From an uncultured bacterium (GTDB lineage: Bacteria; Sysuimicrobiota; Sysuimicrobiia; Sysuimicrobiales; Sysuimicrobiaceae), in NCBI GenBank assembly GCA_964437095.1, contig CAYTFH010000015.1:851-64850 (forward strand): a stretch of 64,000 nt of DNA. Direction: 5' to 3'. Numbering within the stretch: position 1 is the first letter of the stretch; each line of letters opens with the position of its first letter. Below, piece after piece: positions 8,280 to 27,214 of this stretch. The notes under the pieces are model-generated. The model had not been told where the DNA came from, did no database searches, and worked only from the letters and a program-made list of their open reading frames with translations. Made by a program: the position numbers and the translations under genes.

Positions 8280-8964
8280 GGAGACCTCCGCCCTGGTCCC
8301 CACCCGGGTCACCGTGGAGGTGGTCCGCCACGACCCCGAGGTGGTGGCGTACGTGGAGCGGGCCAACGAGTCCTTGGGCGTGCTGGGCTACACCGAGCAC
8401 GGGGTCCGGCACGCTTCCCTGACCAGCCGCATCGCGTACAACATCCTCCGCCGGCTGGGCTACCCGGAACGGGACTGCGAGCTGGCGGCCATCGCGGCCT
8501 ACCTGCACGACATCGGTAACCTCGTCAGCCGGCTGAACCACGAGCACACGGGGGCCCTCCTGGCCGGGGCCATCCTCCAGCGCCTGGGCATGGACCCCGC
8601 GGAGCGGGCGGTGGTGATGAGCGCCATCGGCAACCACGAGGAGTCCCACGGGCAGCCCGTGAGCGCGGTGGGAGCCGCGGTGATCTTGGCGGACAAGTCC
8701 GACGTCCACCGCAGCCGGGTCCGCAACCCCGACCCCGCCACCTTCGACATCCACGACCGGGTGAACTTCGCCGTGGAGCACTCCTTCCTCCGGGTGGACG
8801 AGCGGGCCCGGGAGATCACCCTGGAGCTCACCATCAATACGGAGAAGGCACCGGTGATGGAGTACTTCGAGATCTTCCTGTCCCGCATGGTCATGTGCCG
8901 CCGGGCTGCGGAGCACCTGGGCTGCGCCTTCAAGCTGCAGATCAACGGGGTGCGGTTCCTGTAA
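8272..8964 (+). CDS. HD-domain phosphohydrolase
   Basis: H...HDIG metal-binding motif (AAYLHDIGN); 8-nt overlap with gdh. Confidence 0.7.
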   Translation: MPEETSALVPTRVTVEVVRHDPEVVAYVERANESLGVLGYTEHGVRHASLTSRIAYNILRRLGYPERDCELAAIAAYLHDIGNLVSRLNHEHTGALLAGAILQRLGMDPAERAVVMSAIGNHEESHGQPVSAVGAAVILADKSDVHRSRVRNPDPATFDIHDRVNFAVEHSFLRVDERAREITLELTINTEKAPVMEYFEIFLSRMVMCRRAAEHLGCAFKLQINGVRFL

Positions 8965-9015
8965 GCGCGGTTTGACGGGGCCGGACCAGGGGGCTATCCT
9001 CGACCCGGAGCCGCC

Positions 9016-10302
9016 ATGGACATCCTCTGCGTGGGCACCAGCCACCGCACCGCGCCGGTGCAGGTTCGCGAGCGGGTCGCCTTTCTGGCGGGCCGCGTGG
9101 GGGCGGCGTCCGCCCTGCTCCGGGCCCGGGACGGGCTGCACGAGGCCGTCCTGCTGTCCACCTGCAACCGCACCGAGGCGTACGTGGTGGCCTCCGACCC
9201 ATCCGCGGGCGCACGGTCGGTGTTGGAGTTCTGGTGCGACTACCACGGGCTGGACGGCGCGGAGGTGGAGCCGTACGTGTACAACCTGTCGGGTACGGAC
9301 GCGGTCCGGCACCTGTTCCGGGTGGCCGCGGGGTTGGACTCCATGATGGTAGGCGAGCCCCAGATCCTCGGACAGGTGCGGGAGGCCTTCAGCGCAGCCC
9401 GCAGCGCCCACGCCACGGGCCCCCTCCTGGACGCCCTGTTCCGCCACGCCATCGCCACGGGCCGGAGGGTCCGGCAGCGCACGGGCATCGAGCGCGGTTC
9501 CCTTTCGGTGCCCGCGGCCGCGGTGACCCTAGCCCGCCAGCTCCTGGGCGGTCTCGCGGGCCGCCGGGTGCTGGTCCTGGGCGCGGGCGAGATGGCCGAG
9601 CTCACCGTCCGTCACCTCGTGGAGGCGGGCTGCGGGACGGTGGTGGTCTGTAACCGCACCCTGGAGCACGCCCGCCCCCTGGCGCAGCGGCTGGGCGGGG
9701 TGGCCGTGCGGTTCGACGAGCTGTCCGCCTCCCTGCGGGAAGCGGACATCCTGGTGACCTCCACCGCGGCCCCCCACCCCGTGGTGGAGCCGGAGCTGGT
9801 GGCGCCCGCGGTGGCGGGGCGGCGGGAGCCGTTGGTGATCGTGGACATCGCGGTGCCCCGGGACGTGCACCCGGCGGTGGGCGAGCTGCCGGGGGTACGG
9901 CTGTTCAACGTGGACGACCTGGAGGCCGTGAGCCAGGCCACACGCCAGGCGCGCCAGGCCGAGATCGCGCAGGCGGAGGCCATCGTGGCGGAGGAGACCG
10001 AGCGGTTCTCCGCTTGGCTGCGCTCCCTGAGGGTGGTCCCCCTCATCACCGCCCTCCGCTCTCGGGCGGAGGCGGTGGTGGAGGAAGAGTGGCGGCGGGC
10101 CCTGCCGCGCCTGCGCCACCTCCCGCAGGAGGACCAGGAGGTGGTGCGGGCTGTGCTGCAGGCCGTGGTGAACCGGCTCTTGCACGGCCCCATCGTGCGC
10201 CTCAAGGAGATCGCACGGCGCGAGGAGGCGGTGTACGTGGAGGCCGCCCGCTCCCTGCTCGGCGTGGACGAGGCGGCCGCGGAGTCCGAAGCCGGCCGTT
10301 GA
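9016..10302 (+). CDS. hemA: glutamyl-tRNA reductase
   Basis: LSTCNRTEAYV active-site Cys motif, NAD-binding GAGEMA. Confidence 0.9.
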   Translation: MDILCVGTSHRTAPVQVRERVAFLAGRVGAASALLRARDGLHEAVLLSTCNRTEAYVVASDPSAGARSVLEFWCDYHGLDGAEVEPYVYNLSGTDAVRHLFRVAAGLDSMMVGEPQILGQVREAFSAARSAHATGPLLDALFRHAIATGRRVRQRTGIERGSLSVPAAAVTLARQLLGGLAGRRVLVLGAGEMAELTVRHLVEAGCGTVVVCNRTLEHARPLAQRLGGVAVRFDELSASLREADILVTSTAAPHPVVEPELVAPAVAGRREPLVIVDIAVPRDVHPAVGELPGVRLFNVDDLEAVSQATRQARQAEIAQAEAIVAEETERFSAWLRSLRVVPLITALRSRAEAVVEEEWRRALPRLRHLPQEDQEVVRAVLQAVVNRLLHGPIVRLKEIARREEAVYVEAARSLLGVDEAAAESEAGR

Positions 10303-11210
10303 CCCTCCGCGTCGGGACCCGGACCAGTTCCTTGAGCCGCCAGCAGACGGATTGGGTCCTGCAGCGTCTGCGGGAGCACGACCCCCGCCTGCGCTTCGAG
10401 GTGCTGCCCATCCGCACCGCGGGCGACCGATCCCGTCGGCCCATCCCCCAGCTGGGCGGGACCGGGTGGTTCACCAAGGAGCTGGAGCGGGCCCTCCTGG
10501 GGGGTGCGGTGGACCTGGTGGTGCACAGCCTCAAGGACCTGCCCACGGCACCAACCCCGGGCCTGGTGGTGGCCGCGGTGCCTGTGCGGGAGGATCCCAG
10601 GGACGCCCTGGTGGGTCCGTGGCCGGGCCTGGACCGGCTGCCCGCGGAGGCTAGGGTGGGGACCTCCAGCCCCCGGCGGAGGGCGCAGCTTCTGGCGTAC
10701 CGCAGGGACCTTCGGATCCTGCCTCTGCGCGGCAACGTGGACACGCGCCTCAAAAAAGTCGCCGCGGGAGAGGTGGACGCGGCCGTGGTGGCCGCGGCGG
10801 GGTTGTTGCGGGGCGGGTGGCGGGACCACATCCGGCAGTACGTGGACCCCGACATCCTGCTGCCGGCCCCGGGGCAGGGGGCCCTGACGGTGCAGGTGCG
10901 GGAGGGCGACCGGAGCTTCGTGGAGCTGGTGGGTGTCCTGGACCACCCGCCCACCCGGGCCGCGGTGGAGTCGGAGCGAGCCTTCCTGAGGGGCCTGGGG
11001 GGCGGGTGCACGGTGCCCGCGGCGGCCCTGGGCACGGTGCAGGGAGACCGGCTGCGCCTGCGGGTGCGGGTTCTGTCCGAGGACGGAAGCCGGCAGGTTT
11101 CCGCGGTGCGGGAAGGCCCGCTGGTAGACGCGGAAAGGCTCGGCCGGGAGGCGGCGGAGGAGGTCCGCCCGTTCCTGGCCCTCATGGGAGCCGGGCCGTG
11201 GCGGGGGTAG
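10299..11210 (+). CDS. hemC: hydroxymethylbilane synthase (porphobilinogen deaminase)
   Basis: RVGTRTSSLSRQQT N-terminus, GGGCTVP cofactor loop; TTG start overlapping hemA stop. Confidence 0.85.
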   Translation: MTLRVGTRTSSLSRQQTDWVLQRLREHDPRLRFEVLPIRTAGDRSRRPIPQLGGTGWFTKELERALLGGAVDLVVHSLKDLPTAPTPGLVVAAVPVREDPRDALVGPWPGLDRLPAEARVGTSSPRRRAQLLAYRRDLRILPLRGNVDTRLKKVAAGEVDAAVVAAAGLLRGGWRDHIRQYVDPDILLPAPGQGALTVQVREGDRSFVELVGVLDHPPTRAAVESERAFLRGLGGGCTVPAAALGTVQGDRLRLRVRVLSEDGSRQVSAVREGPLVDAERLGREAAEEVRPFLALMGAGPWRG

Positions 11211-11983
11211 CGAGCCAGCCGTTGCGGGGCCGGCGGGTGCTGGTGACCCGCCCGCGCCACCAGGCGGAGGACCTTCGGGCGCGGCTGGAAGCCCTGGGGG
11301 CGGAGGTGTACGCGGTACCCGTGATCCAGATCCTGCCACCCGAAGACCCAGAGCCGCTGAAGCAGGCCGCGGGTCGCCTGGAGAGCTACCGGTGGGTGGT
11401 GTTCACCAGCCGCAACGGGGCTGAGTCCTTCGCCCGCGCGGCGGGCAGGCCCGCCCTGCCCAGCTCCACGCGGGTCGCGTGCATCGGGCCCGCCACCGCG
11501 CGGGCAGTCCGGCAGCTCCTGGGCTGGCCGGTGCACCTGCAGCCGCGGGCGTACGTGGCGGAGGCCCTGGTGGACGCCTTCCGGGAGGCGGGGGTCCAAG
11601 GGGCTGCGGTGCTGCTGGTGCGGGCGCAGGAAGCTCGCGACACCCTCCCGGAGGGGCTGCGGGCGTGGGGTGCGCGGGTGGACGTGGTGGCCGCCTACCG
11701 CACCCTGCCCGCGTACAATGAAGCCGAGCGGCTCCAGGACGTGTTGCGCCGCGGCGTGGACCTGGCGACCTTCGCCAGCCCCTCCGCGGTGCGGGCGGCG
11801 GTGCAGCTGTGCGGGGAGCTGGAGGTGCTGCGGGCCGTCCCCGCGGCGTGCATCGGCCCGGTGACCGCCGCGGCGGCGGAGCACCTGGGCCTTCGGGTGG
11901 TGGCGGTGGCGGAAGACTTCACCCAGCAGGGTTTGGTGGAAGCCGTGGTCCGCACCCTGACGGGAGGGGAGGGAGGACGGTGA
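11198..11983 (+). CDS. hemD: uroporphyrinogen-III synthase
   Basis: RVLVTRP...VVFTSRNG HemD pattern; start overlaps hemC 3' end (GTG at 11198 or 11207). Confidence 0.75.
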   Translation: MAGVASQPLRGRRVLVTRPRHQAEDLRARLEALGAEVYAVPVIQILPPEDPEPLKQAAGRLESYRWVVFTSRNGAESFARAAGRPALPSSTRVACIGPATARAVRQLLGWPVHLQPRAYVAEALVDAFREAGVQGAAVLLVRAQEARDTLPEGLRAWGARVDVVAAYRTLPAYNEAERLQDVLRRGVDLATFASPSAVRAAVQLCGELEVLRAVPAACIGPVTAAAAEHLGLRVVAVAEDFTQQGLVEAVVRTLTGGEGGR

Positions 11984-15651: not shown

Positions 15652-17183
15652 CGGACCTGCAAATCCCCACGCGGCACGGGGAGGTGGCGTGCGTCCCGGA
15701 GCTGGGCCGGTGGCTGGAGGTGGCGGAAGCCAACGCCCGGCGGCTGGAGCAGGCGCAGATCCGGGGCCAACCCCTGGGGGCGGTGCGGGCGCAGGCCCGC
15801 CAGGAACTGGTGGCCTGCAGCCGCCAGCTGTTGGGCCGCTGGGGCCTGCCCGCGCCCGAGGTGTCCGCAGGACCGTGGGTGGCCACCGGCCACCAGCCGA
15901 CCCCGTTCCACCCGGGCATCTGGGTGAAGACGTGGGGCGTGGACGCGTGCTGCGCCCGCGGGGCGACGGGCCTGTACGTGGTGGTGGACTCTGACGAGTG
16001 CGAGCGGTGGACGGTGCGGGTCCCGCGGCGGGACGGCTCCCTGCAGGTGGCGGAGCGGGTGCTGGTCTCCTGCGGAGCCGAGGTACCCTTCGAGGCGGCT
16101 CCACCGCCGGAGGAGGCGGCCTGGCGGGGGTTCTGCGCCCAGCTGTCCCAGGACCTGGCAACCCTGCGGCTGCCCGAGCTGGTGGAGCGTCTATCCCGGG
16201 CGGAACGGGCGGGGCTGGAGAGCGTACGGTGCGCTCGGAACCTGGGCGAGTTCGGAGCCGCGCTGCGCAGGCGGCTGGAACTGGGCTGCGGGTCCGTGCG
16301 GTACCTGGAGGTGACCGTGTCGCAACTGGCGGGCACCGGCGCGTTCCGCCACTTCGCGGGCTGGATCGCGCAGCACGCGGAGCGCTTCTGGGAGTGCCAC
16401 AACCGGGCCCTGGACCAGTACCGCCGGGAGGAAGGTCTGAGGTCTGCCGCCCAGCCCTTCCCCAACCTGCGGAAAGAGGGCGACCTGGTGGAGCTGCCCT
16501 TCTGGCTCGTGTGGGGCGGGCGCCGGCGTCCGGTGTGGGCGCAGACGGGGAGGGGTGACCCCGTGCTGGTGTGCGACGGAAGGCCTGTGGGCACGGTTCA
16601 CGACCTGCCCCGGGAGCTGAGGCCGCGGGCCCTGACCCTCACCCTGTTCTTGCGGCTGGTGGTGTGCGACCTGTTCGTTCACGGCCTGGGCGGCGCCCGC
16701 TACGACCGCGTCACGGACCGGGTCATGCACGAGTTTTTCGGCACCCCGCCGCCCCCCTTCGCGGTCCTCACCGCCACCTTCCACCTGCCCCTGGCCCGCC
16801 ACCGGGACCCCCAGGCGGAGTACGCTGCCGCCCACCGGAAGTGGCTGGATCTGCACCACAACCCGGACCGCTACCTGCCCCGGGACGGCGAGGTGGCAGC
16901 ATTGGTGGAGGAAAAGTGGCGGTGCATCCAGGCCCTGAACGCCCCGGACCTGCCCCGCCGCAGCCGCCGGGAGCTCACCCAGCGCATCCGGGCCATCAAC
17001 GATTGCCTCCGGCAGCACCTCCAGGACGTGATCCGCGAGGCGGAAGCGGAGCTTGCGGCGTTGCGCCGCGAGGTGGAAGAGCACCAGGTGGCCACCGACC
17101 GCGGCTACCCGTTCTTCCTGTTCGAGCCCGAGGAGGTGCGGGCGTCCGTGGCGATGGCGGAGGGAGTGCGGTGCGGCCGGTAG
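15648..17183 (+). CDS. hypothetical soluble 511-aa protein, possibly distant BshC-like (speculative)
   Basis: GTG overlapping LmbE stop; coiled-coil C-terminus; weak GHQP...HPG resemblance to BshC GGQQ region; no TM segments. Confidence 0.5.
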   Translation: MTDLQIPTRHGEVACVPELGRWLEVAEANARRLEQAQIRGQPLGAVRAQARQELVACSRQLLGRWGLPAPEVSAGPWVATGHQPTPFHPGIWVKTWGVDACCARGATGLYVVVDSDECERWTVRVPRRDGSLQVAERVLVSCGAEVPFEAAPPPEEAAWRGFCAQLSQDLATLRLPELVERLSRAERAGLESVRCARNLGEFGAALRRRLELGCGSVRYLEVTVSQLAGTGAFRHFAGWIAQHAERFWECHNRALDQYRREEGLRSAAQPFPNLRKEGDLVELPFWLVWGGRRRPVWAQTGRGDPVLVCDGRPVGTVHDLPRELRPRALTLTLFLRLVVCDLFVHGLGGARYDRVTDRVMHEFFGTPPPPFAVLTATFHLPLARHRDPQAEYAAAHRKWLDLHHNPDRYLPRDGEVAALVEEKWRCIQALNAPDLPRRSRRELTQRIRAINDCLRQHLQDVIREAEAELAALRREVEEHQVATDRGYPFFLFEPEEVRASVAMAEGVRCGR

Positions 17184-17848
17184 ACCCCGTGGTCACGGAG
17201 GGCCTGGGACGTCGCTTCGGCCCCGTGGTGGCTCTCGAGAACGTGTGGCTGCGGGTCCACCAGGGCCAGGGCTTGCTGCTGGTGGGGCCCAACGGCTCGG
17301 GCAAGACCACCCTGCTGCGGGTGCTGGCCACCGCCTTGCGGCCCAGCCCGGGAAGGGCGTGGGTCTGCGGGTACGACGTGACTTCCGAGGGCCACCGGGT
17401 GCGGGAGGTCTGCGCGTACCTGGGTACTTCCCCGGGCCTGTACGGGGCCCTCACGGGGTGGGAGAACCTCTGCCTGGCCGCGGACCTGTGCGGCCGGCCC
17501 CGCGCCGCGGCCCGGGACGCGCTGGCGTGGGCCGGCATGGAGTCGGTGGCGGGTAGGCCCGTGGGGACGTACAGCCTGGGAATGCGGCGGCGGCTGGCGC
17601 TGGCCCGGGTGTACCTACAGCAGGCCCGCGTGCTGCTGCTGGACGAGCCCTTCGTGGGCCTGGACGACCCGGGCGTGCGCCTGGTGCGGGAACTCGTGGA
17701 AGACACAAAGCGCCGTGGCGGCGCCGTGGTGCTGGCCACCCACGACCGGGACCGGGCCCTCGGACTGTGCGAGGCCGTGGCGGAGCTGCAGTCGGGCCGT
17801 CTGCGACCCGCCCTTGCGGGTTTGGCCGCGGTGAGGGCCGAGCGGTGA
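17171..17848 (+). CDS. ccmA: haem exporter ATPase CcmA (ABC)
   Basis: Walker A GPNGSGKTT; degenerate signature YSLGMRRRLALAR; followed by ccmBCDE. Confidence 0.8.
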   Translation: MRPVDPVVTEGLGRRFGPVVALENVWLRVHQGQGLLLVGPNGSGKTTLLRVLATALRPSPGRAWVCGYDVTSEGHRVREVCAYLGTSPGLYGALTGWENLCLAADLCGRPRAAARDALAWAGMESVAGRPVGTYSLGMRRRLALARVYLQQARVLLLDEPFVGLDDPGVRLVRELVEDTKRRGGAVVLATHDRDRALGLCEAVAELQSGRLRPALAGLAAVRAER

Positions 17849-18498
17849 GGGCGTGGCGGCGGGCGGTGGCCCTGGCCCGCAAGGATCTGCTGCTGGAGTG
17901 GCGGGTGCGGGACGCCCTGCTGCCCGCGGGCACCTTCGGCCTTGCGGTGCTGCTGGTGCTGGGCTTGGCCTCCGGCGGAGGCCCCGAGGCCGCGGCACCC
18001 GTGCTGTGGGTGTCCGTGTCCTTGGCCGCGGTGCTGGCCGTGGGCCGCACCACCGAACGGGAAGGGGAAGAGGGGACCTTGGAGGCGCTGCTGTTGTACC
18101 CGGGAAGCCGGGAAGACCTGTTCTGGGGCAAGTGGATGGCCCTGGCGAGCCTGGTGGCGCTGCTGGCCGCGGCCCTGTGGTGCGCGCAGGCGGTCTTGTT
18201 CGGCGCGGGCGTGCGGGCGTGGGGACCCTTCGCCCTCACCGTCCTGCTGGCCGCGTCGGGCCTGGGGGCGGTGGGCACCTTGCTGGCGGCGGTGCTGTGG
18301 AGCGTGCGGGCTTCCCGCCTGTTGCTGCCCCTGTTGTTCCTGCCCACGGCGCTGCCGGTGCTGCTGGCGGGCGTGCGCCTCACGGAGGCCGCGTCGCTGG
18401 GGGCCCCCTCGGGCCCCTGGCTGGGGGTGCTGGCCGCGTTCGACCTTCTGTTCTTGCTGGTGGGACCCGCGCTGTTCGAGGCGGTGGTGGAGGGCTAA
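17845..18498 (+). CDS. ccmB: haem exporter membrane protein CcmB
   Basis: 6-TM ABC-2 permease at the ccmB position; GTGA overlap with ccmA. Confidence 0.75.
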   Translation: MRAWRRAVALARKDLLLEWRVRDALLPAGTFGLAVLLVLGLASGGGPEAAAPVLWVSVSLAAVLAVGRTTEREGEEGTLEALLLYPGSREDLFWGKWMALASLVALLAAALWCAQAVLFGAGVRAWGPFALTVLLAASGLGAVGTLLAAVLWSVRASRLLLPLLFLPTALPVLLAGVRLTEAASLGAPSGPWLGVLAAFDLLFLLVGPALFEAVVEG

Positions 18499-19137
18499 GT
18501 GAGAGCGTTCCTGACCGGCGGGACCATGGCCCTGCTGTGCGCGGGGCTGTTCCTGGGCCTGTGGGCGTCCCCGCCGGACGCGTACCAGGGAGAGTACGTG
18601 CGGATCATGTACGTGCACGTGCCCGCCGCCCTGGCCGCGTACGCCGCGGCGGCGGTGGCGTGCGCCACCGGAGCCCTGTACCTGTGGCGGCGGCGGGTAG
18701 ACTACGACCTCGTGTCGCACGCGGGTGCGGAGCTAGCGGCGTTGTTCAGCGCGCTGACGTTGCTCACGGGGATGCTGTGGGGAAGGCCCGTGTGGGGGGT
18801 CTGGTGGGCCTGGGACGCGCGCCTGGTGAGCACCGCGGTGCTGTTCTTCCTGTACGTGGGGTCGCTGCTGGTGCGGGGGCTGGCGGAGGACCCCGACCGC
18901 GGGCGCAGGCTCGGCGCGGCGGTGGCGGTGGTGGCGTTCCTGGACGTCCCCCTGGTGCACTACTCGGTGGTGTGGTTCCGCACCCTGCACCAGGGGCCTT
19001 CCATCAGCCTGCAGGGTGTGAGGATCGCGCCCGAACTCCTCCTGCCGCTCTCGGTGAACGTGGTGGCCTACCTGAGCCTGCTCAGCTGGCTGCTCGTGGA
19101 GCGCAGCCGCCTCGCTCGGGCGGAGGCACAACCGTGA
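18499..19137 (+). CDS. ccmC: haem exporter protein CcmC
   Basis: WWD domain WGVWWAWDARL plus conserved His-containing loops. Confidence 0.85.
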   Translation: MRAFLTGGTMALLCAGLFLGLWASPPDAYQGEYVRIMYVHVPAALAAYAAAAVACATGALYLWRRRVDYDLVSHAGAELAALFSALTLLTGMLWGRPVWGVWWAWDARLVSTAVLFFLYVGSLLVRGLAEDPDRGRRLGAAVAVVAFLDVPLVHYSVVWFRTLHQGPSISLQGVRIAPELLLPLSVNVVAYLSLLSWLLVERSRLARAEAQP

Positions 19138-19262
19138 GCCCATGGGTGTGGGTGGCGTCCGCTTACGGGTGCGCGGCCCTGCTGGTGGGCGGATACGTGT
19201 GGTGGCTGCGGCGCAGGCTGCGCCGCGCCGCCTCGCGCGGGAACCAGGAGGTGGAGGGGTGA
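19134..19262 (+). CDS. ccmD: haem exporter protein CcmD (42 aa)
   Basis: single TM plus RRRLRR tail; GTGA overlaps at both ends. Confidence 0.6.
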   Translation: MSPWVWVASAYGCAALLVGGYVWWLRRRLRRAASRGNQEVEG

Positions 19263-19642
19263 AGCGTCTGCGCCTGGTGGCTGCGGTGGCGGTGGTGGTG
19301 GGCGCCCTGGGCTACGTGGTGGCCGGTGGCCTGCGGGAGTCGGTGGTGTACTACGTCACCCCCACGGAGCTGCGCTCCGGCAGCGTGGACGTGCGTCGGC
19401 CCGTGCGGGTGGGAGGGCAGGTGGTACCCGGGTCCCTCCACCGGGACGGCGGCACGGGGGAGCTGCGCTTCGTCCTCTCCGACGGCCGCACCACCCTGCC
19501 CGTGCGGTTCCGCGGGGACGTGGCGGGGCTGTTGGTCCAAGGTCAGGGTGCGGTGGTGGAGGGCCGGCTGGACCCGGACGGATCCTTACGGGCCCACACG
19601 GTGGTGGTCAAGCACTCCGAGGAGTACCGGCCGCCGCGCTAG
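19259..19642 (+). CDS. ccmE: cytochrome c maturation haem chaperone CcmE
   Basis: N-terminal TM, OB-fold, C-terminal VKHSEEY haem-binding His/Tyr motif. Confidence 0.8.
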   Translation: MKRLRLVAAVAVVVGALGYVVAGGLRESVVYYVTPTELRSGSVDVRRPVRVGGQVVPGSLHRDGGTGELRFVLSDGRTTLPVRFRGDVAGLLVQGQGAVVEGRLDPDGSLRAHTVVVKHSEEYRPPR

Positions 19643-19800
19643 CGGCTTGACGCGGGGGCAGTCCGGTGCGGAAAATCGTGGCCGGACCTTCACGGCGGGG
19701 GCCCGGCGGGGCCCTTGCGCGTTTTTCGGGCTCGCGAGAGAGGAGTCCGGGTCCCGGAAGTCAAAAACACACGCCGAGTTCACGGGTTTCAGGAGGCACC

Positions 19801-20700
19801 TTGCGCCGACGCCAAGCCGGGCCCCTGTGCGGCCGGCGGCCCCGCGCGGCGGGCCCCGGCGGGTTGCTGCTGGTGGCCGTCCTGTTCCTGGCGGGCTGCC
19901 AGCCCTACGTCCGCGTCAGCACTGCGGCCCGGGAGGCCTACCAGCCCCTGGAGGGGTTCGCGGTGCGCATGAACTTCATGCCCCGTAAGCCCGACGCGGA
20001 CGCGGGCAAGAAGATCTACGAAGCCCGCTGCGCCGTCTGCCACGGGCCGGAAGGGCGCGGGGACGGCCCCATGGCCCAGCAGCTCACCGCGCCGGAGAAG
20101 AACCCGTACACGGACTTTCTGAGCCTGTTCCGGATCCACCCGAAGACGGAACCCCTGCCGAGCCGTCCCGCGCGGTTCAACAACCTGGACCAGATGCGGC
20201 TGAACGCGCCCTTTGCCATGTTCGAGACCATCGCCCGGGGCCGGCCCCACACCGCCATGCCGGGGTTCCAGCACCCCGCCTACGGGGCCGTGGACGGGGG
20301 CGAGCCGAGGTTGTCCGACCAGGAGATCTGGGGCGTGCTGTTCTGGGAGTGGAGCCGGACCACCAGCCGTGAGCGCCTGGCACAGGGGCGGCGGATCTAC
20401 AACGAGATGTGCGCCAGCTGCCATGGGGTCCGCGGCGACGGCAACGGCCCGGAGGCCGCGAAGATCCGGGAGGAAGTGTGGACGTGGGCGCGGGGCGTGG
20501 GCCCCGGTATTTTCACCGACCGGGACTGGATGGCGTACCGTAAGCCCACGGAGCTGTACCAGAAGGTGGCCGAAGGGGTCCGGCGCCGCGGGCTGGAGCT
20601 CATGCCCGCGTACGCGGACAAGCTCACCCCGGACCAGATCTGGACCGTGGTAGAGTACCTGTGGACGTTCGTGTACACGCCTCCCCGGGAGATGCGGTAG
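19801..20700 (+). CDS. dihaem cytochrome c lipoprotein
   Basis: two CxxCH motifs (CAVCHG, CASCHG); lipobox LAGC; TTG start after AGGAGG (alternative ATG at 19666). Confidence 0.75.
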   Translation: MRRRQAGPLCGRRPRAAGPGGLLLVAVLFLAGCQPYVRVSTAAREAYQPLEGFAVRMNFMPRKPDADAGKKIYEARCAVCHGPEGRGDGPMAQQLTAPEKNPYTDFLSLFRIHPKTEPLPSRPARFNNLDQMRLNAPFAMFETIARGRPHTAMPGFQHPAYGAVDGGEPRLSDQEIWGVLFWEWSRTTSRERLAQGRRIYNEMCASCHGVRGDGNGPEAAKIREEVWTWARGVGPGIFTDRDWMAYRKPTELYQKVAEGVRRRGLELMPAYADKLTPDQIWTVVEYLWTFVYTPPREMR

Positions 20701-20719: not shown

Positions 20720-21364
20720 GTGAACCGGAGGACGTTCCTCAAGCTCCTGAGCGCAGTGCCCGCGTTGGGGGCCCTGGGCGCGTTCCTGGCCCCGGTGCTG
20801 CGGTACCTCAAGCCGAACCTGGAAGCCGGCTTGGGCGTCCCCAAGGGTAAGGTGGTGCCGGACCTGGCCGAGGGCGACCTCCCCAAGGGGGAAGCCCTGC
20901 CCATCGCCACCCTGGAGGAGCTGCGGGAGCCGTGGTCCAGCAAGTTCTTCGTGTTCACGCAGAAGTACCCCCAGTACACGCCCGAGCAGGCGAAGGCGGC
21001 TACGGTACCCGGGGTGGCCGTCAAGCTGCCGTGGAAGCTGTCGTTCCCGGGCTACAAGGGGGGCAAGGAGCCCACGGACATCGTGGTCTTCTCCCGCATC
21101 TGTCCGCACCTGGGCTGCATCTTCAACTACGTGCCCAACTGGCGGGAGGTGACCGCGGGCTACGGCGGGTACGTGCCGCCGGAGGACCGCCGCCACGGGC
21201 TGATGGCCTGCCCGTGCCACCTGTCCATCTATGACCCCGCGGACCGGGAACTGCCCGGTCGGGTGCTGTCGGGCCCCGCGCCCCGCCCGCCCCGGTTCTT
21301 CACCTACGAGATCCGCGACGGGGTCATCGTGGTGACCGGCGCGGAGCCCGGCGGGATCGCCTGA
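20720..21364 (+). CDS. Rieske [2Fe-2S] subunit of a cytochrome bc/b6f-type complex
   Basis: Tat motif RRTFLK; CPHLGC...CPCHLS Rieske boxes. Confidence 0.9.
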   Translation: MNRRTFLKLLSAVPALGALGAFLAPVLRYLKPNLEAGLGVPKGKVVPDLAEGDLPKGEALPIATLEELREPWSSKFFVFTQKYPQYTPEQAKAATVPGVAVKLPWKLSFPGYKGGKEPTDIVVFSRICPHLGCIFNYVPNWREVTAGYGGYVPPEDRRHGLMACPCHLSIYDPADRELPGRVLSGPAPRPPRFFTYEIRDGVIVVTGAEPGGIA

Positions 21365-21376
21365 GGGGGCTTCGGG

Positions 21377-22525
21377 ATGTGGGACCGGCTGCGGGAGTGG
21401 TTCCGGGAGCGCAAGGAGAAGCTGGACCTGTTCGACGAGACCCGCGTGGACCGGCAGGACAACCCCCTCTACATCCTCGGGCAGATCGTGTACTTCTCCT
21501 GGATCGCGGTGGTGGTGAGCGGCATCCTGCTCATGATCTGGTACGAGCCCACCGCCCACGGCGCGTACAACTCCATCCTCCGGATCCAGCGGGAGATCCC
21601 CTTCGGCTGGCTCATCCGCGGCGTCCACAAGTACGGCGCGGACATGCTCATCCTGGCCATCACCCTCCGCATCTACCGGATGTACTTCCTCGGCGAGTAC
21701 AAGCGGCCCCACGAGCTGTCGTGGATGATCCTGTTCGGGTCCCTGGTCCTGGCCATGATCTCCGGCCTCACGGGCTACCTGCTCATCTGGAACCAGCGGG
21801 CCTTCTGGGCCGCCAAGGTGGTGCTCACCGTGGCGGTGTACCTGGACCAGTTGCCCCTGGTCGGCCAGACGCGGTTCGGCAGCGCCATCGCCTTCGCCTT
21901 CCTCGGTGGGCCCGCGGAGGGGCAGGGGACCCTCACCCGCTTCTACGCCATCCACTTCGGCATCTCCGCCCTGTTGCTGGTGGCCACGGAGGTGTACTTC
22001 TACTTCACCCGTAGGCGCCGGTTCGTGCTGTCGCCTGCGGCCCTGGTGATCCTCGCCCTCATGCTGGTGGTCACCAGCTACGTGTTCCCCGCGGAGATGG
22101 GCCGGCGCGCCGATCCCAACCGCACCCCGCTGCCCATCCTGTCGGACTGGTACTTCCTGGCCCTGTACCAGTACGTGAAGTACACCCCGCCCCTGTGGGC
22201 GGGCCTGGGGCCGGGCCTGCTCATCGCGTACGGCATGCTGGTCCCGTTCCTGGACCGCAGCAAGGGCCGCCGGCCCTCGGAGCGGCCCTTCTTCACCGTG
22301 GTGGGCGTGATGGCCCTCACCTACTTCCTGGTGTTTACCGCCCTGATCATGTTCAACATCGCGGTGATCGGCCGGGACCCGCACGTGGTGCTGCTGGTCA
22401 CCGCGGCCACCCTGACCTTGGGCCTGGCGCTGGAGCTGCGCTACCGGAAGCGCAGGAAGCTGGCGGAGGCCGCCGCTCCATCTCCCGCGCCGCGGCCCGC
22501 CCCGGCCCGGGCCACGGCGGGGTGA
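21377..22525 (+). CDS. cytochrome b (b6 fused to subunit IV), atypical: n-side haem ligands absent
   Basis: [14 protein letters not shown] and TLTRFYAIH align to PetB, but the second His of each pair is Arg and Tyr; SDWYF subunit-IV motif. Confidence 0.85.
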   Translation: [382 protein letters not shown]

Positions 22526-22529
22526 AGCG

Positions 22530-22793
22530 GTGGACGTGGCCCGGTTCGCTGCGTCCTTTCTGGCCGCGGTGCTGAGCCTGCACGAGACCGTGCGGGCCCT
22601 CCGGGGGGCGTGGCTGCACCCGGCGCCCGATCGGTGGCTGCTGGCGGCGGGCTGGCTGGTCCTGGCAGCGGCCTCCGGGCTGTGGGCGGGGTACGTGGTG
22701 TACGCGGCGGACCGCCGGTCCGGACGCGTCCGCCGCCGGGTGGCTCTGTACGAACGGTGGATGGCGGCGCAGCGGGGAGGGAGGTGGCCGTGA
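22530..22793 (+). CDS. small two-TM membrane protein (possible bc-complex small subunit)
   Basis: GTG start 5 nt after cyt b stop; two hydrophobic helices. Confidence 0.45.
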   Translation: MDVARFAASFLAAVLSLHETVRALRGAWLHPAPDRWLLAAGWLVLAAASGLWAGYVVYAADRRSGRVRRRVALYERWMAAQRGGRWP

Positions 22794-22984
22794 ACGGACC
22801 CGGCCGGTACCTGGCCCTGGCGGGCTTCCTGGCGGCGGTGGGCCTGGTGTGCGTGGCCCTCATGGTGTACGGCGAGTGGACCGACCGGCGCCTGGTGGCC
22901 TCCGGCGCCGTGGGCGTGCTCCTGGTGCTGTACGCGGCCATCGTGGTCCTGTTCCGGAAGGCGCACCTGACCGCGGAGGAGTGA
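22790..22984 (+). CDS. small two-TM membrane protein (64 aa)
   Basis: GTGA overlap with preceding ORF, GGGGAGGGAGG RBS; two TM helices. Confidence 0.45.
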   Translation: MNGPGRYLALAGFLAAVGLVCVALMVYGEWTDRRLVASGAVGVLLVLYAAIVVLFRKAHLTAEE

Positions 22985-22985
22985 G

Positions 22986-24161
22986 GTGTACCGGCGGATC
23001 CTGAGGGGACTGCAGAGCGCCACCCTGCGGGTGGACGTGTGGATCAACGGGGTCCTGCCGCAGGATTTCAACCCCCTGTACTACACGGGCGGTCTGAGCA
23101 ACCTGTTCCTGACCATCCTGGTGGTCTCCGGGATCCTCATCTTCCTGTACTACGAGCCCAGCCTGGAGGGGGCGTACGCCTCCGTGGAGTTCCTGACCCG
23201 GGACGTGCCCTACGGGGTGGTGTTCCGCGGCATCCACCGGTACGCCGCGGACGCCTACCTGGTGGCCATCCTCCTGCACCTGTTCCGGAACTGGTTCACC
23301 GACCGCTACCGGGAGGCCCGGGACAGCCAGTGGCTGTCGGGGATGTTCCTCCTGGTGGTGTCGGCCTTCACGGGCTTCACCGGGTACCTACTGGTGTGGG
23401 ACGAGCGGGCGCAGCTGCTGAGTAGCCTCACGGTGCAGGCCCTGCGGTCGGTGCCCCTGGTCGGGCCCTGGCTGGCCCAGGTGTTCCTGGGCGGCCCGGG
23501 GGTGAGCGACACCACCCTGCCGCGCTTCCTCTTCCTGCACATCGGGCCGGCCATGACCCTGTACGTGCTCCTGTGGTGGCACTACGTCCGGCTGCGCCAC
23601 CCCAAGATCTGGCCGCCCGCGGTGTGGGTCCTGTTCAGCCTGGGATTGCTGTTCATCCTGGCGTCCGCCCTGCCTGCGGCCAGCGGCCGGCCCGCGCAGC
23701 CCGGCGCTTCCCCCGAGGGGTTCCCGGTGGACTGGTTCTTCCTGTGGCCGTACGTGCTGGCCCGTTGGATGGCCCCGGGTTGGGCCCTGGCCCTGGTGGC
23801 GGCCCTGGTGGCGTACGGCATGGTGATCCCCTACACCCTGCGGGAGACCCCGGAGGAACGGGAGGTGCGGGCCCTGGGGCAGGCGGTGGTGGTGGAGGAG
23901 AACTGCACCGGCTGCGATCTGTGCTACTACGACTGCCCGTACAACGCCATCTACATGGTGCCCAGCCCCTACCCGGGCAAGAGCCGGGCCGCGGCCAACC
24001 GCAAGCTGCTGGCCGTGGTGGTGGACTCCCGGTGCGTGGAGTGCGGCATCTGCATCGGCGCATGCCCCTTCGAGGCTCTGGAACTTCCGAGGATGTTGGA
24101 CAAGGACGTGCAGGAACGCATCCGGCGGGGGGCCCAGGCACCGGCCCCCGCCACCCCGTGA
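22986..24161 (+). CDS. cytochrome b (b6 + subunit IV-like) fused to a C-terminal 2x[4Fe-4S] ferredoxin domain
   Basis: all four haem His retained (IHRYAADAYLVAILLH; LHIGPAMTLYVLLWWH); CTGCDLCYYDCP and CVECGICIGACP motifs. Confidence 0.85.
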   Translation: MYRRILRGLQSATLRVDVWINGVLPQDFNPLYYTGGLSNLFLTILVVSGILIFLYYEPSLEGAYASVEFLTRDVPYGVVFRGIHRYAADAYLVAILLHLFRNWFTDRYREARDSQWLSGMFLLVVSAFTGFTGYLLVWDERAQLLSSLTVQALRSVPLVGPWLAQVFLGGPGVSDTTLPRFLFLHIGPAMTLYVLLWWHYVRLRHPKIWPPAVWVLFSLGLLFILASALPAASGRPAQPGASPEGFPVDWFFLWPYVLARWMAPGWALALVAALVAYGMVIPYTLRETPEEREVRALGQAVVVEENCTGCDLCYYDCPYNAIYMVPSPYPGKSRAAANRKLLAVVVDSRCVECGICIGACPFEALELPRMLDKDVQERIRRGAQAPAPATP

Positions 24162-24170
24162 GGCAGGACC

Positions 24171-24596
24171 ATGGCCACCGTACCGGAGCGAACTCCCAGC
24201 CCTGACAGCCCGCCCCGGGTGGTGGGTTTCCTGTGCGACTGGGCGGTGCGCAGCGAGGGATTGCTGAACCCCGACGACACCCTGGTGGGCATGCCTCACG
24301 TGACCGTGATCCGGGTGCCGTGTTCGGGGTTCGTGAAGCCCAGCTGGCTGGAGCTGGCCCTCCGCAGCGGCGCCGCGGGGACCTTCGTGTGCGGTTGCCC
24401 CATGGGGGACTGCCTGAACCGGGAGGGCAACTGGATCATCGAGGACCGCATCGACCAGCTCCGCAAGCGGCTCAGCCGTCAGAAGGTGGACCCCGATCGG
24501 GTGGCCTTCTTCGCCTACGGCCTGCACGACCGGGAAGCCTTCCTGCAAGCGGTGGCGGAGTTCGTGGAGCGGCTGCGGTCGGGAGGGAAGCGGTGA
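24171..24596 (+). CDS. MvhD/FlpD-like iron-sulfur protein (hydrogenase delta-subunit family), standalone
   Basis: FLCDW...VIRVPCSG...VCGCPMGDCLNREGN matches the FlpD Cys pattern (5 of 6 Cys). Confidence 0.75.
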   Translation: MATVPERTPSPDSPPRVVGFLCDWAVRSEGLLNPDDTLVGMPHVTVIRVPCSGFVKPSWLELALRSGAAGTFVCGCPMGDCLNREGNWIIEDRIDQLRKRLSRQKVDPDRVAFFAYGLHDREAFLQAVAEFVERLRSGGKR

Positions 24597-24709
24597 CGCG
24601 GTTTGGCCCCAAGCGGTGGAGGACGTACCTGTGGTACGCGGTGTTCTACCTCCTGTTCTTCGCCCTGTTGCTGTTCGTGGCGGCCTTCGGCCTGGTGGCG
24701 GAGGCGTAG
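24593..24709 (+). CDS. 38-aa single-TM peptide (FixQ/CcoQ-like position)
   Basis: GTGA overlap with MvhD-like stop; YLWYAVFYLLFFALLLFVAAFGLV helix; directly precedes CcoN-like gene. Confidence 0.4.
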   Translation: MTRFGPKRWRTYLWYAVFYLLFFALLLFVAAFGLVAEA

Positions 24710-24723
24710 GCCCGGAGGGACGG

Positions 24724-26115
24724 ATGCTGGTGTGGATGTTCACGGACGAGCGGTGGAGTTCCGCCCGGCGCTTCCTGTACACGGGCGCCCTGTGGGGACT
24801 CGTGGCCCTGGCGTACGAGGTCCTGGTGGCCCTGCAGCGAGCCTGGCCCCAGCTGCTGGCGGACGTCCCCTGGGCTGCGCACGGGCGGGCGGTGGCGGCG
24901 GCCCACGACCTGTGGGTGTACGGGGTCCTCTCGAGCTTGCTGGTGGGAGCCGCCCTTCGGGTGGTGGGCCAGGGCGACCGGGAGGGGCTGTGGAGCGAGC
25001 CGCTGGCGAACCTGAGCGTCTGGCTGTGGAACCTGGCCCAGGTGTTGGGCTGGTGGTGGTTGTCCGTGGGCTGGACCCGGGGCCGGCCGGGGGCCGAAGC
25101 GCCCTGGCCGGTGGACCTGCTGCGGCTTGCGGCGGGGCTGCTGCTGCTGTGGGTGGTCCGCAGGACCCTCGCCCGCAATCCCCGCCGGGAGCCGGGGCTC
25201 GCCCTCCTCGCGGTCGCCTTCACCGCCTTCCCCTTGGTGCTGGTGCTCGGCAAGGGGCTGTTCTGGCCCTTCGACAACCCGTACCGGGGGGTCGTGGACG
25301 CCCTGGCGCAGGCCTTCCTGCGGGCGGGCTTGGTGTGGCTGTGGCTGGCGCCCCTGGCCAGCGGGGTTTCCCTGTACGTCCTGGCAGCCTTGGGCGGACG
25401 TCCGGGGCTGTCGGAGGGGCTGGGGATGGCCGCGGTGACGGGTTTTGCGGGGTTCGGCGCCCTCGCGGGCCCCTCGGCCTTCGTGTGGGGCCCGATCCTC
25501 TTCTGGGTGCAGACCCTGGGTGCGGTGGCGCAGGCCCTGTTGCTGCTGCCGGTGGCCACCGTGCTGACCGGTGCGGTGCGGTCCCTGGAGGGGAGCTGGC
25601 ACGGGCCCGGTGACCACCCCGGGGTGGCCCTGGTGCTGGCGGGGCTTGTGGCCGTGTTGTGCGGCGCCGCCGCCTCTGCGCTCGCCTCCGTGGCGGGCCC
25701 CAGCCGGGTCATCCACCTTTCCGCCTGGCTGGAGGGAACCAGAGCCCTGACGGTGGGCGGTCTGAGCGCGGTGGCGGCGGGGTGCACGTACCTGCTGACC
25801 CCGCACGTCCTGGGGCGGGCCCTGGCCAGCAGGAGCCTGGCGTGGCGGCACCTGTGGCTCGTGGTGGGTGGCTGGGCGGTGGGCGTTCCCGCGCTGCTGC
25901 TGGCGGGGTTGAGCCAGGGAGCGGTGTGGGCCACGGGCACGGTCCCCTTCGCCCACTCCGTGGAGGCCGCGCGGCCCCTGCTGGCGGCGGGCGTGACGTG
26001 GGCAGTGCTCGGGTGGGTCGGACAGGCGGTGTTCGCGTGGAACCTGTTCCTGACCGCGGACTCAGGGGAGCCGGTGCCCGCGGCGGAGCAGGAGCTGGCG
26101 CCCGTGGCGGGCTAG
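24724..26115 (+). CDS. cbb3-type oxidase subunit I (CcoN) homologue lacking the CuB/high-spin haem His ligands
   Basis: N-terminus ALQRAWP...PWAAHGRAVAAAHDLWVYG aligns to CcoN helix I-II; 12-TM hydrophobicity; no HH pair anywhere; WWYGHN region is WWWLSV. Confidence 0.7.
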   Translation: MLVWMFTDERWSSARRFLYTGALWGLVALAYEVLVALQRAWPQLLADVPWAAHGRAVAAAHDLWVYGVLSSLLVGAALRVVGQGDREGLWSEPLANLSVWLWNLAQVLGWWWLSVGWTRGRPGAEAPWPVDLLRLAAGLLLLWVVRRTLARNPRREPGLALLAVAFTAFPLVLVLGKGLFWPFDNPYRGVVDALAQAFLRAGLVWLWLAPLASGVSLYVLAALGGRPGLSEGLGMAAVTGFAGFGALAGPSAFVWGPILFWVQTLGAVAQALLLLPVATVLTGAVRSLEGSWHGPGDHPGVALVLAGLVAVLCGAAASALASVAGPSRVIHLSAWLEGTRALTVGGLSAVAAGCTYLLTPHVLGRALASRSLAWRHLWLVVGGWAVGVPALLLAGLSQGAVWATGTVPFAHSVEAARPLLAAGVTWAVLGWVGQAVFAWNLFLTADSGEPVPAAEQELAPVAG

Positions 26116-26125
26116 GAGGCGTCGG

Positions 26126-26587
26126 GTGAGGGACCCTGTGATCCCTGTGGTGCGGTTCGTGGTGGCCGCGGTGCTGTGCGGTTTTCTGGCCACGGTGCTG
26201 CTGCCGAGGCTGGACCCCGCCGTCCGACCCGCCCGCGCTGCGCCCCTCGGGCCGCAGATCCAGCGGGGCCGGTGGGTGTACGTCCGTGAGGGCTGTGTGG
26301 CCTGCCACACCCAGCAGGTGCGGGCGGTGGAGGCCCGGTTCGGGGTGGTGCGGGGTCAAGGGGACGTGGGAGAAGCTTCCGGGCCCGCCCAGTACGCGGG
26401 ACAGAACCCCGTTCTGCTGGGGTCCTTGCGGCTGGGCCCGGACCTATCCCACGTGGGGGCCCGCAGCCAGGACCCCAACCAGCTGCGGTCGTTGCTGCGG
26501 TCCGGCAGCGTGGGGATGCCGCCGGTCCGGTACCTTTCGGAGTCCGAGCTGTCGGACCTGGTGGCGTACCTGTTAAGCCTGCGCTAG
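26126..26587 (+). CDS. cbb3-type oxidase subunit II (CcoO/FixO)-like monohaem cytochrome c
   Basis: VYVREGCVACHTQQVR and RLGPDLSHVG match CcoO signatures. Confidence 0.8.
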   Translation: MRDPVIPVVRFVVAAVLCGFLATVLLPRLDPAVRPARAAPLGPQIQRGRWVYVREGCVACHTQQVRAVEARFGVVRGQGDVGEASGPAQYAGQNPVLLGSLRLGPDLSHVGARSQDPNQLRSLLRSGSVGMPPVRYLSESELSDLVAYLLSLR

Positions 26588-26674: not shown

Positions 26675-27214
26675 ATGGCGGAGCAGGCCCAGACCGTCCG
26701 TCCCTCTCGGTGGCTGCTGGCCCTGTACGTCCTGCTGCCCCTGTGGGCCGTGGCGTACCTGTTCGTGGCGGGAGGCCTGGTGCAGCCGGAAGTTCAGCCC
26801 GTGGCCCGCACCGTGGAGGGGGTCTCCGTGGGAGCCGGGCCCGTGGTGGACGACCCCGAGCACGTCATGGGCATCCTGGCGGTGGTCCCCGAGGACGCCC
26901 GGGACGACCGGCCGCCGCGGCCCATGACCGAGGCCATGCTGGCCCAGGCCAAGACCCAGTACGACACCCTGTGCGCCGTGTGCCACGGTCCGGAGGGCCG
27001 GGGCGACGGGCCCGCGGGCGCGGCGCTGAACCCCAAGCCCATGAACTTCCACTACCGGTCCTTCCAGGAGCGCATGCCCGTGGGCGCCACCCACTGGGTG
27101 ATCAAGAACGGCCTCGGCAACACCCCGCGGCGCAGCGGCATGCCCGCCTTCGGCCAGCTGCCCGACGACCAGATCTGGGCCCTGGTGGAGTACGTGCGCC
27201 GGCTGGGCCGCTAA
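26675..27214 (+). CDS. membrane-anchored monohaem cytochrome c
   Basis: N-terminal TM, CAVCHG, distal Met (SGMPAF); AGGAGG RBS. Confidence 0.8.
   Translation: MAEQAQTVRPSRWLLALYVLLPLWAVAYLFVAGGLVQPEVQPVARTVEGVSVGAGPVVDDPEHVMGILAVVPEDARDDRPPRPMTEAMLAQAKTQYDTLCAVCHGPEGRGDGPAGAALNPKPMNFHYRSFQERMPVGATHWVIKNGLGNTPRRSGMPAFGQLPDDQIWALVEYVRRLGR

Follow-up and report, generated by a model that had tools for sequence, protein, structure and literature searches.

The DNA analyzed here, hereafter the window, is a stretch of 64,000 nucleotides (nt) from an uncultured bacterium of the Sysuimicrobiaceae (GenBank assembly GCA_964437095.1, contig CAYTFH010000015.1, positions 851 to 64,850), with a G+C content of ∼72%. 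An open reading frame (ORF) on its forward strand, at positions 22986 to 24161, encodes a protein of 391 amino acids in which a bc-type cytochrome b runs into a ferredoxin domain; we call it b2::Fer4. The ORF opens with GTG, and a Shine-Dalgarno-like sequence, GGAGGAG, lies 9 nt upstream. It belongs to a cluster of genes that all read in the forward direction, in the order ccmABC(D)E, a dihaem cytochrome c, a Rieske protein, a first cytochrome b (b1), two small proteins, b2::Fer4, an MvhD/FlpD-type protein, a CcoN-like protein, a CcoO-like protein, and a cytochrome c. An exact-sequence look-up of the b2::Fer4 protein returned no record.

Pfam matched residues 24 to 204 of b2::Fer4 to Cytochrome_B (PF00033; E = 7.7e-31) and residues 300 to 370 to overlapping 4Fe-4S dicluster models (Fer4, E = 5.9e-11; Fer4_7, E = 5.6e-10; Fer4_21 and others). 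The cytochrome b2 domain, helices A to F, occupies positions 22986 to 23855 (+), as judged from Pfam, alignment to cytochrome b6, an AlphaFold2 model, and Foldseek. Its helix B motif, IHRYAADAYLVAILLH (residues 83 to 98), supplies the haem ligands H84 (nt 23235) and H98 (nt 23277), and its helix D motif, LHIGPAMTLYVLLWWH (residues 184 to 199), supplies H185 (nt 23538) and H199 (nt 23580). In alignments with solved b6 chains these four residues fall on the haem ligands His86, His100, His187, and His202; b2 thus has the two bis-His haem sites of a cytochrome b, with the His pairs on helices B and D. The spacing of 14 residues in helix D is bc1-like (it is 15 in b6), and Thr takes the position of Cys35, the haem ci cysteine of b6; on these two grounds we rejected membership of b2 in the b6f type. 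A Qo-like motif, PVDWFF, stands at residues 247 to 252 (PVDWF at nt 23724 to 23738). The ferredoxin domain (23877 to 24095, +), supported by the Pfam Fer4 families, Cys conservation, the ratio of nonsynonymous to synonymous substitution rates (dN/dS), and the NCBIfam HdrA2 model, carries two CxxCxxCxxxCP motifs of the Fer4 clan, each predicted to hold a cluster: CTGCDLCYYDCP at residues 307 to 318 (nt 23904 to 23939; C307, C310, C313, and C317) and CVECGICIGACP at residues 350 to 361 (nt 24033 to 24068; C350, C353, C356, and C360). These motifs, and the four haem His with their +14 spacing, lie where an earlier reading of the bare sequence (the original prediction) had placed them.

The AlphaFold2 model of b2::Fer4, built from 20 homologues (mean pLDDT 84, pTM 0.83), has six long membrane helices A to F (residues 30 to 54, 77 to 104, 110 to 137, 177 to 200, 212 to 228, and 264 to 283), cd and ef surface helices, and a small α/β C-terminal domain. 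Its best Foldseek matches are bc1 cytochrome b chains, with 280 to 350 columns aligned. Together, model and matches indicate that the protein is a cytochrome b as far as helix F and that the ferredoxin domain replaces helices G and H. The "subunit-IV-like segment" of the original prediction needs correction: it amounts to helices E and F with the PVDWF motif of the ef loop, and the Pfam domain Cytochrom_B_C was detected in b1 and not in b2. The cd1 helix of b2, WDERAQLLSSLT, has diverged from the b6/bc1 pattern WDQ(I/V)GYWAVKIV. We did not accept assignment of b2 to the NCBIfam equivalog "ExtP," which scored 152 bits against a cut-off of 290 bits and spans the four-helix part only.

An even number of helices (six, A to F) after an N-terminus on the n-side supports a predicted n-side, cytoplasmic location for the C-terminal Fer4 domain. 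Membrane iron-sulfur (FeS) proteins inserted by the dual Sec/Tat route (Tooke et al. 2017, PMC5449189) have a twin-arginine motif before the last transmembrane helix and FeS clusters outside. b2::Fer4 does not match them: the sequence before helix F reads ...PYVLARWMAPGW... and contains no twin-arginine motif. A periplasmic, Tat-exported Fer4 domain was rejected on the helix count, the missing motif, and the MvhD partner, which is encoded by the next gene and is fused to the same chain in 17 of 20 distant relatives; the cytoplasmic placement proposed originally is upheld on the same evidence.

A word-indexed search with b2::Fer4 found 538 homologues at E ≤ 1e-5, and the best 120 of them (59 to 93% identity, 381 to 407 amino acids) all combine PF00033 with Fer4. 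The original description of the protein as another cytochrome b paralogue joined to a 2x[4Fe-4S] domain is upheld. HMMER, run exhaustively against 1.84 billion cluster representatives, gave 5,463 matches, 273 of them below 1e-30. When the b2-type ORFs of the loci described below were aligned with the window protein (87 sequences), the four His and eight Cys were kept in 85, the other two being truncated; the Qo-like motif varies across relatives save for its Asp and Phe. Orthologues at 91 to 93% identity are equal in length. Against two close relatives (L001 and L004 of the loci), dN/dS was 0.12 to 0.14 for the whole gene and 0.07 to 0.11 for the Fer4 part, which is thus at least as constrained as the cytochrome part, and every component of the cluster is under purifying selection. 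The original prediction had considered that the Cys motifs might reflect a frameshift or that the ferredoxin part might be a separate, unrelated gene; homologue architecture and dN/dS speak against both. The ORF is continuous, more than 500 homologues have the same fusion, and the low dN/dS extends through Fer4, so an artefact of frameshift or assembly joining two genes is practically excluded.

The other cytochrome b, b1 (21377 to 22525, +), is a bc-type protein of 382 amino acids with eight predicted transmembrane helices and both the N and C domains (Cytochrome_B, E = 5e-31; Cytochrom_B_C, E = 1.5e-7). Alignment to the b6 chains 6rqf_I and 1q90_B shows that the ligands of haem bL/bp are retained (H84 and H193) and those of haem bH/bn are substituted, the second His of helix B by Arg98 and that of helix D by Tyr207. 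With Arg and Tyr at the n-side positions, b1 should be able to bind only the p-side haem. The loss is general: ligand patterns among 58 b1 orthologues were HRHY (38), HRHF (12), HKHY (5), HRHL (2), and HRHH (1), and the bH site is restored in none, which sustains the earlier description of the first cytochrome b as bn-less. Its Qo motif, LSDWY (nt 22139 to 22153), is present in 58 of 59 aligned b1 sequences, that of the window included, and its cd1 helix, WNQRAFWAAKVV, keeps the b6-like pattern. Like b2, b1 lacks the haem ci cysteine in the b6 alignments. The b1 orthologue of "Candidatus Obscuribacter phosphatis" (locus L033, 5309 to 7210) is longer, at 633 amino acids, with an extension of ∼250 residues after the cytochrome b part that comprises a soluble-looking region and a final transmembrane helix; the b1 of the window has no such extension.

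Upstream of b1 lie the genes for a Rieske [2Fe-2S] protein with a TAT signal (20720 to 21364, +; Pfam TAT_signal and, weakly, Rieske; NCBIfam Rieske_proteo, 4e-10) and, first in the cluster after the ccm set, a membrane-anchored dihaem cytochrome c (19666 to 20700, +; Pfam Cytochrom_C/Cytochrome_CBB3, two stretches), which is likely the electron acceptor of the Rieske protein. The Rieske gene, ∼1.6 kb upstream of b2::Fer4 in the same operon, encodes the cluster motifs CPHLGC (nt 21101) and CPCH (nt 21209). The second continues as CPCHLSIYD and so offers both Ser and Tyr. Ser and Tyr near the Rieske cluster usually go with a higher potential. The partner of this protein, b1, has an Asp-type (xDWY) Qo motif, a type that Kao and Hunte (PMC4122944) linked to menaquinol and low-potential Rieske proteins.

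Directly downstream of b2::Fer4 is the gene for the MvhD/FlpD-type protein (24171 to 24596, +; Pfam FlpD, PF02662, 1.3e-24), a domain of ∼130 residues without transmembrane helices, predicted to be cytoplasmic, with the conserved Cys of a predicted [2Fe-2S] cluster. It aligns to MvhD (5odc_D, E = 6e-15), its Cys22, Cys51, Cys76, and Cys81 falling on the MvhD cysteines. The NCBIfam HdrA2 model covers the Fer4 domain with its positions 571 to 639 and FlpD with positions 635 to 770, so that the two are collinear with the C-terminus of HdrA2; consecutive matches to one model suggest that Fer4 and FlpD were recruited jointly. The original prediction had overlooked this protein as a part of the module, as it had the loss of all metal ligands in the neighbouring CcoN-like protein, described below.

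A scan limited to one genome per species yielded 80 loci, for which synteny was assessed by tblastn and blastp. The closest (91 to 92% identity) are labelled Candidatus Sysuimicrobiota (CSP1-3); further labels include Armatimonadota, Symbiobacterium thermophilum (a metagenome-assembled genome, MAG), Melainabacteria/Obscuribacterales, Deinococcales, "Deltaproteobacteria," Nitrospinota, Aquificaceae, and Thermodesulfobacteriota. FlpD has a gene of its own in 71 loci (split type) and is part of the same chain in 15 (fused type). All 50 split-type loci that extend 3.5 kb or more upstream have both a Rieske gene and a b1-like gene, and tblastn found the dihaem cytochrome c syntenic in the same proportion (50/50); FlpD lies directly downstream of b2::Fer4 in 62 of 64. 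A Rieske or b1 gene is present in none of the nine fused-type loci with enough flank. The conserved operon, from the dihaem cytochrome c through Rieske, b1, the two small proteins, and b2::Fer4 to FlpD, recurs in Sysuimicrobiota, Melainabacteria, Deinococcales, and the Symbiobacterium-labelled MAG. Oxidase genes vary around this core. In L033 the order is CcoN, CcoO, two cytochromes c, Rieske, b1, two small proteins, b2::Fer4, and FlpD, where the operon ends; a CcoN-like gene is found near b2::Fer4 in 38 split-type loci; the Melainabacteria and Deinococcales operons include a fully liganded cbb3 oxidase; and two Sysuimicrobiota loci (L087 and L088) have a cupredoxin gene after FlpD instead of the CcoN-like set.

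The fused type belongs to a wider family. Most of the 150 best representative proteins are 480 to 790 amino acids long, and the tri-domain proteins retrieved by b2::Fer4 share 30 to 39% identity with it over its full length (E = 1e-40 to 1e-64); FlpD follows Fer4 on the same chain in the 17 of 20 distant representatives mentioned above. Many fused members end in one transmembrane helix and a β-rich periplasmic domain of ∼150 residues with conserved His, Met, and Cys. Named examples come from Verrucomicrobiota, Calditrichota, Myxococcota, Rhodothermales, and the cultured Fodinibius halophilus and are annotated as "hydrogenase iron-sulfur subunit" or "cytochrome b N-terminal domain-containing protein." In six of six neighbourhoods (L081 to L086) the fused gene stands beside SCO1/SenC and COX1. 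Four of them (L081, L083, L084, and L085; Balneolota, represented by F. halophilus, Calditrichota, Myxococcota, and one more MAG, L081) have the full order of a ∼480-residue protein, a 48-residue protein, a 174-residue COX2-like protein bearing a CuA motif, COX1, SCO1/SenC, and cyt b-Fer4-FlpD extended by the transmembrane helix and β-rich domain; the ∼480-residue protein matches COX1 weakly, and in L083 only. L082 and L086 are partial, and L086 (Verrucomicrobiota) shows only COX1, SCO1/SenC, and the fused gene because its contig ends there. A UbiA gene is nearby in three of the six, and an Rrf2 regulator precedes the operon in two.

We propose, with moderate confidence, that b2::Fer4 is the electron-exit subunit of a Rieske/cytochrome b quinol oxidoreductase built with two different b paralogues, through which an FeS wire leads to the cytoplasm. 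Electron bifurcation from quinol is classically illustrated by Rieske/cytochrome b complexes, and, to our knowledge, every characterized member returns the low-potential electron to quinone at the Qi site. Here b1, with LSDWY, the cd1 helix, and bL as its only haem, would supply the quinol-oxidizing Qo site together with the Rieske protein and the dihaem cytochrome c. A b1 without bH requires the low-potential electron to exit via a neighbouring subunit, and a b1 homodimer would leave it no exit from bL; a b1/b2 heterodimer best explains the complementary arrangement. The electron would pass from bL of b1 to bL of b2, from there to bH of b2, on to the two [4Fe-4S] clusters at the cytoplasmic face of b2, and then to the [2Fe-2S] cluster of MvhD/FlpD. 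The exchange of electrons between the two bL haems of a bc1 cytochrome b dimer is established, according to literature cited in PMC5600118, and an n-side FeS route from haem bN has been proposed independently for anammox complexes (PMC12954380). The wire would replace or supplement the Qi quinone-reduction site of bc1 and b6f, giving a redox loop without Qi in which protons are released outside at Qo and the electron is carried inward, so that half of the quinol electrons would go to the cytoplasm and not back to quinone. Delivery of n-side electrons to FeS clusters rather than to a Qi quinone, as the original prediction had it, is plausible. For the presumed cytoplasmic acceptor, candidates are a ferredoxin-like carrier, a flavoprotein, and a quinone at an n-side site.

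Several points weigh against this proposal. All the evidence for the putative heterodimer consists of complementary cofactor loss and operon linkage. The main gap is that the operon ends at FlpD, to be followed by a cupredoxin or CcoN-like gene, with no cytoplasmic acceptor encoded; downstream in the window, L033, L087, and L088 there are no Hdr, hydrogenase, or flavoprotein genes. Half of the respiratory electrons leaving in this way would demand an abundant acceptor, and the thermodynamics of reducing low-potential FeS clusters against the membrane potential are tight. Finally, cyt b-Fer4-MvhD may have had a different ancestral role, since the fused clade does without a Rieske protein and is encoded next to SCO1/SenC and an oxidase. 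A stronger form of the proposal is tentative, and we regard it as doubtful though a serious contender: the b1/b2 heterodimer would be obligate, bL-to-bL transfer would be the sole low-potential route, and bifurcation would serve no Q cycle but would charge the cytoplasmic FeS/MvhD clusters to reduce a ferredoxin-like carrier or flavoprotein in aerobes, making the operon a living example of the "cytochrome b with cytoplasmic oxidoreductase plus Rieske" stage postulated by Dibrova et al. for the origin of bc complexes.

As an alternative, b2 might take part in an ordinary Q cycle and reduce quinone at a functional Qi site, with Fer4 and MvhD not as the main exit but as accessories that, for example, sense redox state, buffer electrons, or admit electrons from ferredoxin at the side. 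Side entry of this kind has been proposed for cyclic flow into b6f. b2 does keep both haem sites and the elements of helices A, D, and E that usually build Qi, and no stoichiometric cytoplasmic acceptor is encoded nearby. On the other hand, an FeS domain stands in place of helices G and H, the haem ci cysteine is missing, and the ligands of the FeS and MvhD clusters do not vary even among very divergent relatives, a constancy seldom seen in an accessory that can be dispensed with. We consider this explanation unlikely.

The same complex might also run in reverse, with MvhD/Fer4 as the point of entry for electrons from reduced ferredoxin or from a hydrogenase/Hdr-like partner; these would pass through the FeS clusters to bH and bL and then reduce p-side quinone or join the Rieske/cytochrome c branch (confurcation, or a reverse bc reaction). 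MvhD links dehydrogenase modules to HdrA in solved Mvh-Hdr complexes (the FlpD protein matches 5odc, 7bkb, and 9sw2), dihaem cytochromes b commonly anchor bidirectional FeS "wires" (PMC5600118), and Sysuimicrobiota have been described as facultative autotrophs that oxidize H2 or sulfide (PMC11604079). However, the genes of the operon are a forward, quinol-oxidizing set: Rieske and c-type cytochromes, joined in Melainabacteria and Deinococcales by an intact cbb3 oxidase that favours operation from quinol to O2. Hydrogenase or Hdr genes are not linked in the window, L033, L087, or L088, and movement of electrons from the n-side to the p-side would dissipate the membrane potential. Reverse operation is, in our judgment, rather improbable.

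The neighbours of the fused clade suggest another role, in which cyt b-Fer4-MvhD is no catalytic subunit of complex III but a transmembrane reductase for the biogenesis or maintenance of haem-copper oxidases, reducing Cu(II) or Sco thiols; CcoG, an FeS cupric reductase, would be its analogue. The fused-clade gene invariably comes after SCO1/SenC and a COX1/COX2 pair, often with UbiA next to it; one representative (P0147) is a SCO1::cyt b::Fer4 fusion; and the transmembrane helix and β-rich periplasmic domain with conserved His, Met, and Cys, sometimes with a cytochrome c domain, would suit such a function. The idea appeals for the fused clade but fits poorly with the clade of the window, whose protein has no periplasmic domain and no linked Sco gene and is strictly linked (50/50) to a Rieske protein and a bH-less cytochrome b. 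b2::Fer4 is moreover under strong purifying selection where CcoN has no ligands or is replaced by a cupredoxin, and so its role there cannot be the insertion of copper into that oxidase. For the window protein we hold this explanation to be quite improbable.

The claim of the original prediction that the arrangement is not that of described complexes was overstated, as there are at least partial precedents (PMC4122944, PMC6349859, and PMC12954380). Kao and Hunte (2014, PMC4122944) described cytochromes b fused to 4Fe-4S and MvhD domains as the "PDWF-FeS clade," with no Rieske gene in the clusters, and also Pyrobaculum cytochromes b without one bH ligand. The nine fused-type loci above agree with that absence of Rieske. 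Like members of that clade, the window protein joins 2x[4Fe-4S] to a bc-type cytochrome b that has both haem sites and a Qo-like motif of the xDWF type, here PVDWF. Unlike them, it has a separate MvhD, no terminal transmembrane helix with periplasmic domain, and linkage to Rieske and a bH-less b; the separate MvhD/FlpD gene and the Rieske gene in the operon make it a distinct subtype. Matheus Carnevali et al. (2019, PMC6349859) described Melainabacteria in which petB/petC adjoin a type C oxidase, in their terms a "complex III/IV combination," with no mention of a second cytochrome b, an FeS domain, or MvhD, and the paper on Sysuimicrobiota (PMC11604079) does not discuss complex III. The fusion of cytochrome b, FeS, and MvhD domains was therefore already known, whereas its pairing with Rieske and a bH-less cytochrome b is apparently undescribed: our literature search, which did not extend to subscription journals, gave no description of the set of Rieske, bH-less b, b::Fer4, and MvhD.

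Compared with bc1 and b6f, the system shares a Rieske protein with CPHLGC and CPCH, the bis-His cytochrome b fold, a Qo motif, a c-type acceptor, and best matches to b6 and bc1 cytochrome b; it differs in having two nonequivalent b paralogues, one of them bH-less, in place of a homodimer, a ferredoxin domain for helices G and H, and an added MvhD. The anammox complexes Kuste4569-4574 and Kustd1480-1485, for which Hauser et al. (2025, PMC12954380) modelled an n-side FeS/FAD route, resemble it, as far as that paper and the work of Kartal et al. cited there describe them, in combining Rieske/cytochrome b with an n-side FeS chain and a proposed delivery of the low-potential electron to the cytoplasm. 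As described in the same sources, their FeS chain lies in a separate FAD/NAD(P) oxidoreductase subunit, their homodimeric cytochrome b carries bN and cN, and multihaem cytochromes c are added. In the window, by contrast, the FeS domain is fused to cytochrome b, MvhD terminates the chain, and there is no gene for a flavoprotein. QmoABC, NarGHI, HdrDE, and DsrMK-type enzymes likewise wire the quinone chemistry of a dihaem b to the cytoplasm by FeS clusters (NarI/NarH and QmoC/QmoB), and QmoC is itself a cytochrome b::FeS fusion, with an MvhD-like domain in QmoB; their cytochromes b, however, are of the NarI/HdrE family and not bc-type with a Qo site, and none is known to be paired with Rieske. 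In gene order, the fused relatives (COX2-like, COX1, SCO1/SenC, cyt b-Fer4-FlpD) are similar to the sNOR "norSY-senC-orf1" cluster of nitrifiers (PMC4940428; bioRxiv 10.1101/765727), from which the window cluster differs in having no Sco and no B-type oxidase; a literature search on NE0686/orf1 did not reveal what sNOR orf1 is.

The operon, present in at least four labelled lineages, combines a cytochrome b that has lost bH with one wired to 2x[4Fe-4S] and MvhD, which points to another fate for the low-potential electron of Rieske/cytochrome b complexes. One of these lineages, Melainabacteria, is the nonphotosynthetic sister of Cyanobacteria. Transfer between bL haems across the dimer has so far been studied in engineered bc1 heterodimers; the b1/b2 pair would offer a natural test case for it. 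The operon would also provide an independent, simpler counterpart to the still unproven proposal that anammox complexes export reducing power to the cytoplasm. Annotation of "complex III" in Melainabacteria, Deinococcales, and Sysuimicrobiota needs rereading, the genes now being named petB/petC or "hydrogenase iron-sulfur subunit." The arrangement also matters for hypotheses on how bc and b6f complexes originated, among them that of Dibrova et al. (2017, PMC5600118), which derives bc complexes from a four-helix cytochrome b associated with a cytoplasmic oxidoreductase and Rieske.

The CcoN-like gene (24616 to 26115, +; COX1, 1e-23) encodes a 12-transmembrane-helix protein that can be aligned to Pseudomonas stutzeri CcoN (3mk7_A) over ∼440 residues but lacks all six His that coordinate haem b, haem b3, and CuB as well as the cross-linked Tyr251. 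It was therefore rejected as the terminal oxidase of the module. With an intact ORF and a dN/dS of 0.28 to 0.33, this pseudo-CcoN looks like a cofactor-less structural relic, not a dead pseudogene, and it is a lineage-specific accessory outside the conserved core. A ligand-less CcoN-like protein is also encoded in L001 to L004 and L017, and the Melainabacteria and Deinococcales orthologues keep all seven residues. It is followed by a CcoO/FixO-like monohaem cytochrome c that retains its CxxCH motif, CVACH (26126 to 26587, +; Pfam FixO, 5.8e-15), and a membrane-anchored monohaem cytochrome c (26675 to 27214, +; Pfam Cytochrom_C; NCBIfam cytochrome579, 3.6e-17, below the cut-off).

Between b1 and b2::Fer4 lie two small membrane proteins. 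The first, of 87 residues (22530 to 22793, +), was assigned as an ORF and has a gene of 81 to 86 residues in the same place in L087 and L088. The second (22790 to 22984, +; ∼64 residues, two transmembrane helices) has a GTG start that overlaps the stop codon of the preceding ORF; tblastn showed its frame to be conserved in L001 to L004, L021, and L065, and L087 and L088 have a counterpart of 62 to 66 residues. Genes for cytochrome c maturation by System I (ccmA, B, C, and E; 16500 to 19650) stand directly upstream of the Rieske/cytochrome b cluster, and TatA, RadC, and MreB lie downstream of it, a housekeeping-like context that L087 and L088 share.

Additional domain arrangements were seen among the relatives. 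Three representatives (P0192, P0196, and P0206) carry a periplasmic cytochrome c domain at the far C-terminus. P0147 has SCO1/SenC at the N-terminus of the cytochrome b::Fer4 chain, and P0149 has a pyridine-nucleotide-disulfide oxidoreductase dimerization domain at its C-terminus. On a contig of a "delta proteobacterium" MAG (L074), the pair of cytochrome b::Fer4 and FlpD occurs twice in tandem, at 8001 to 9464 and 10322 to 11791.

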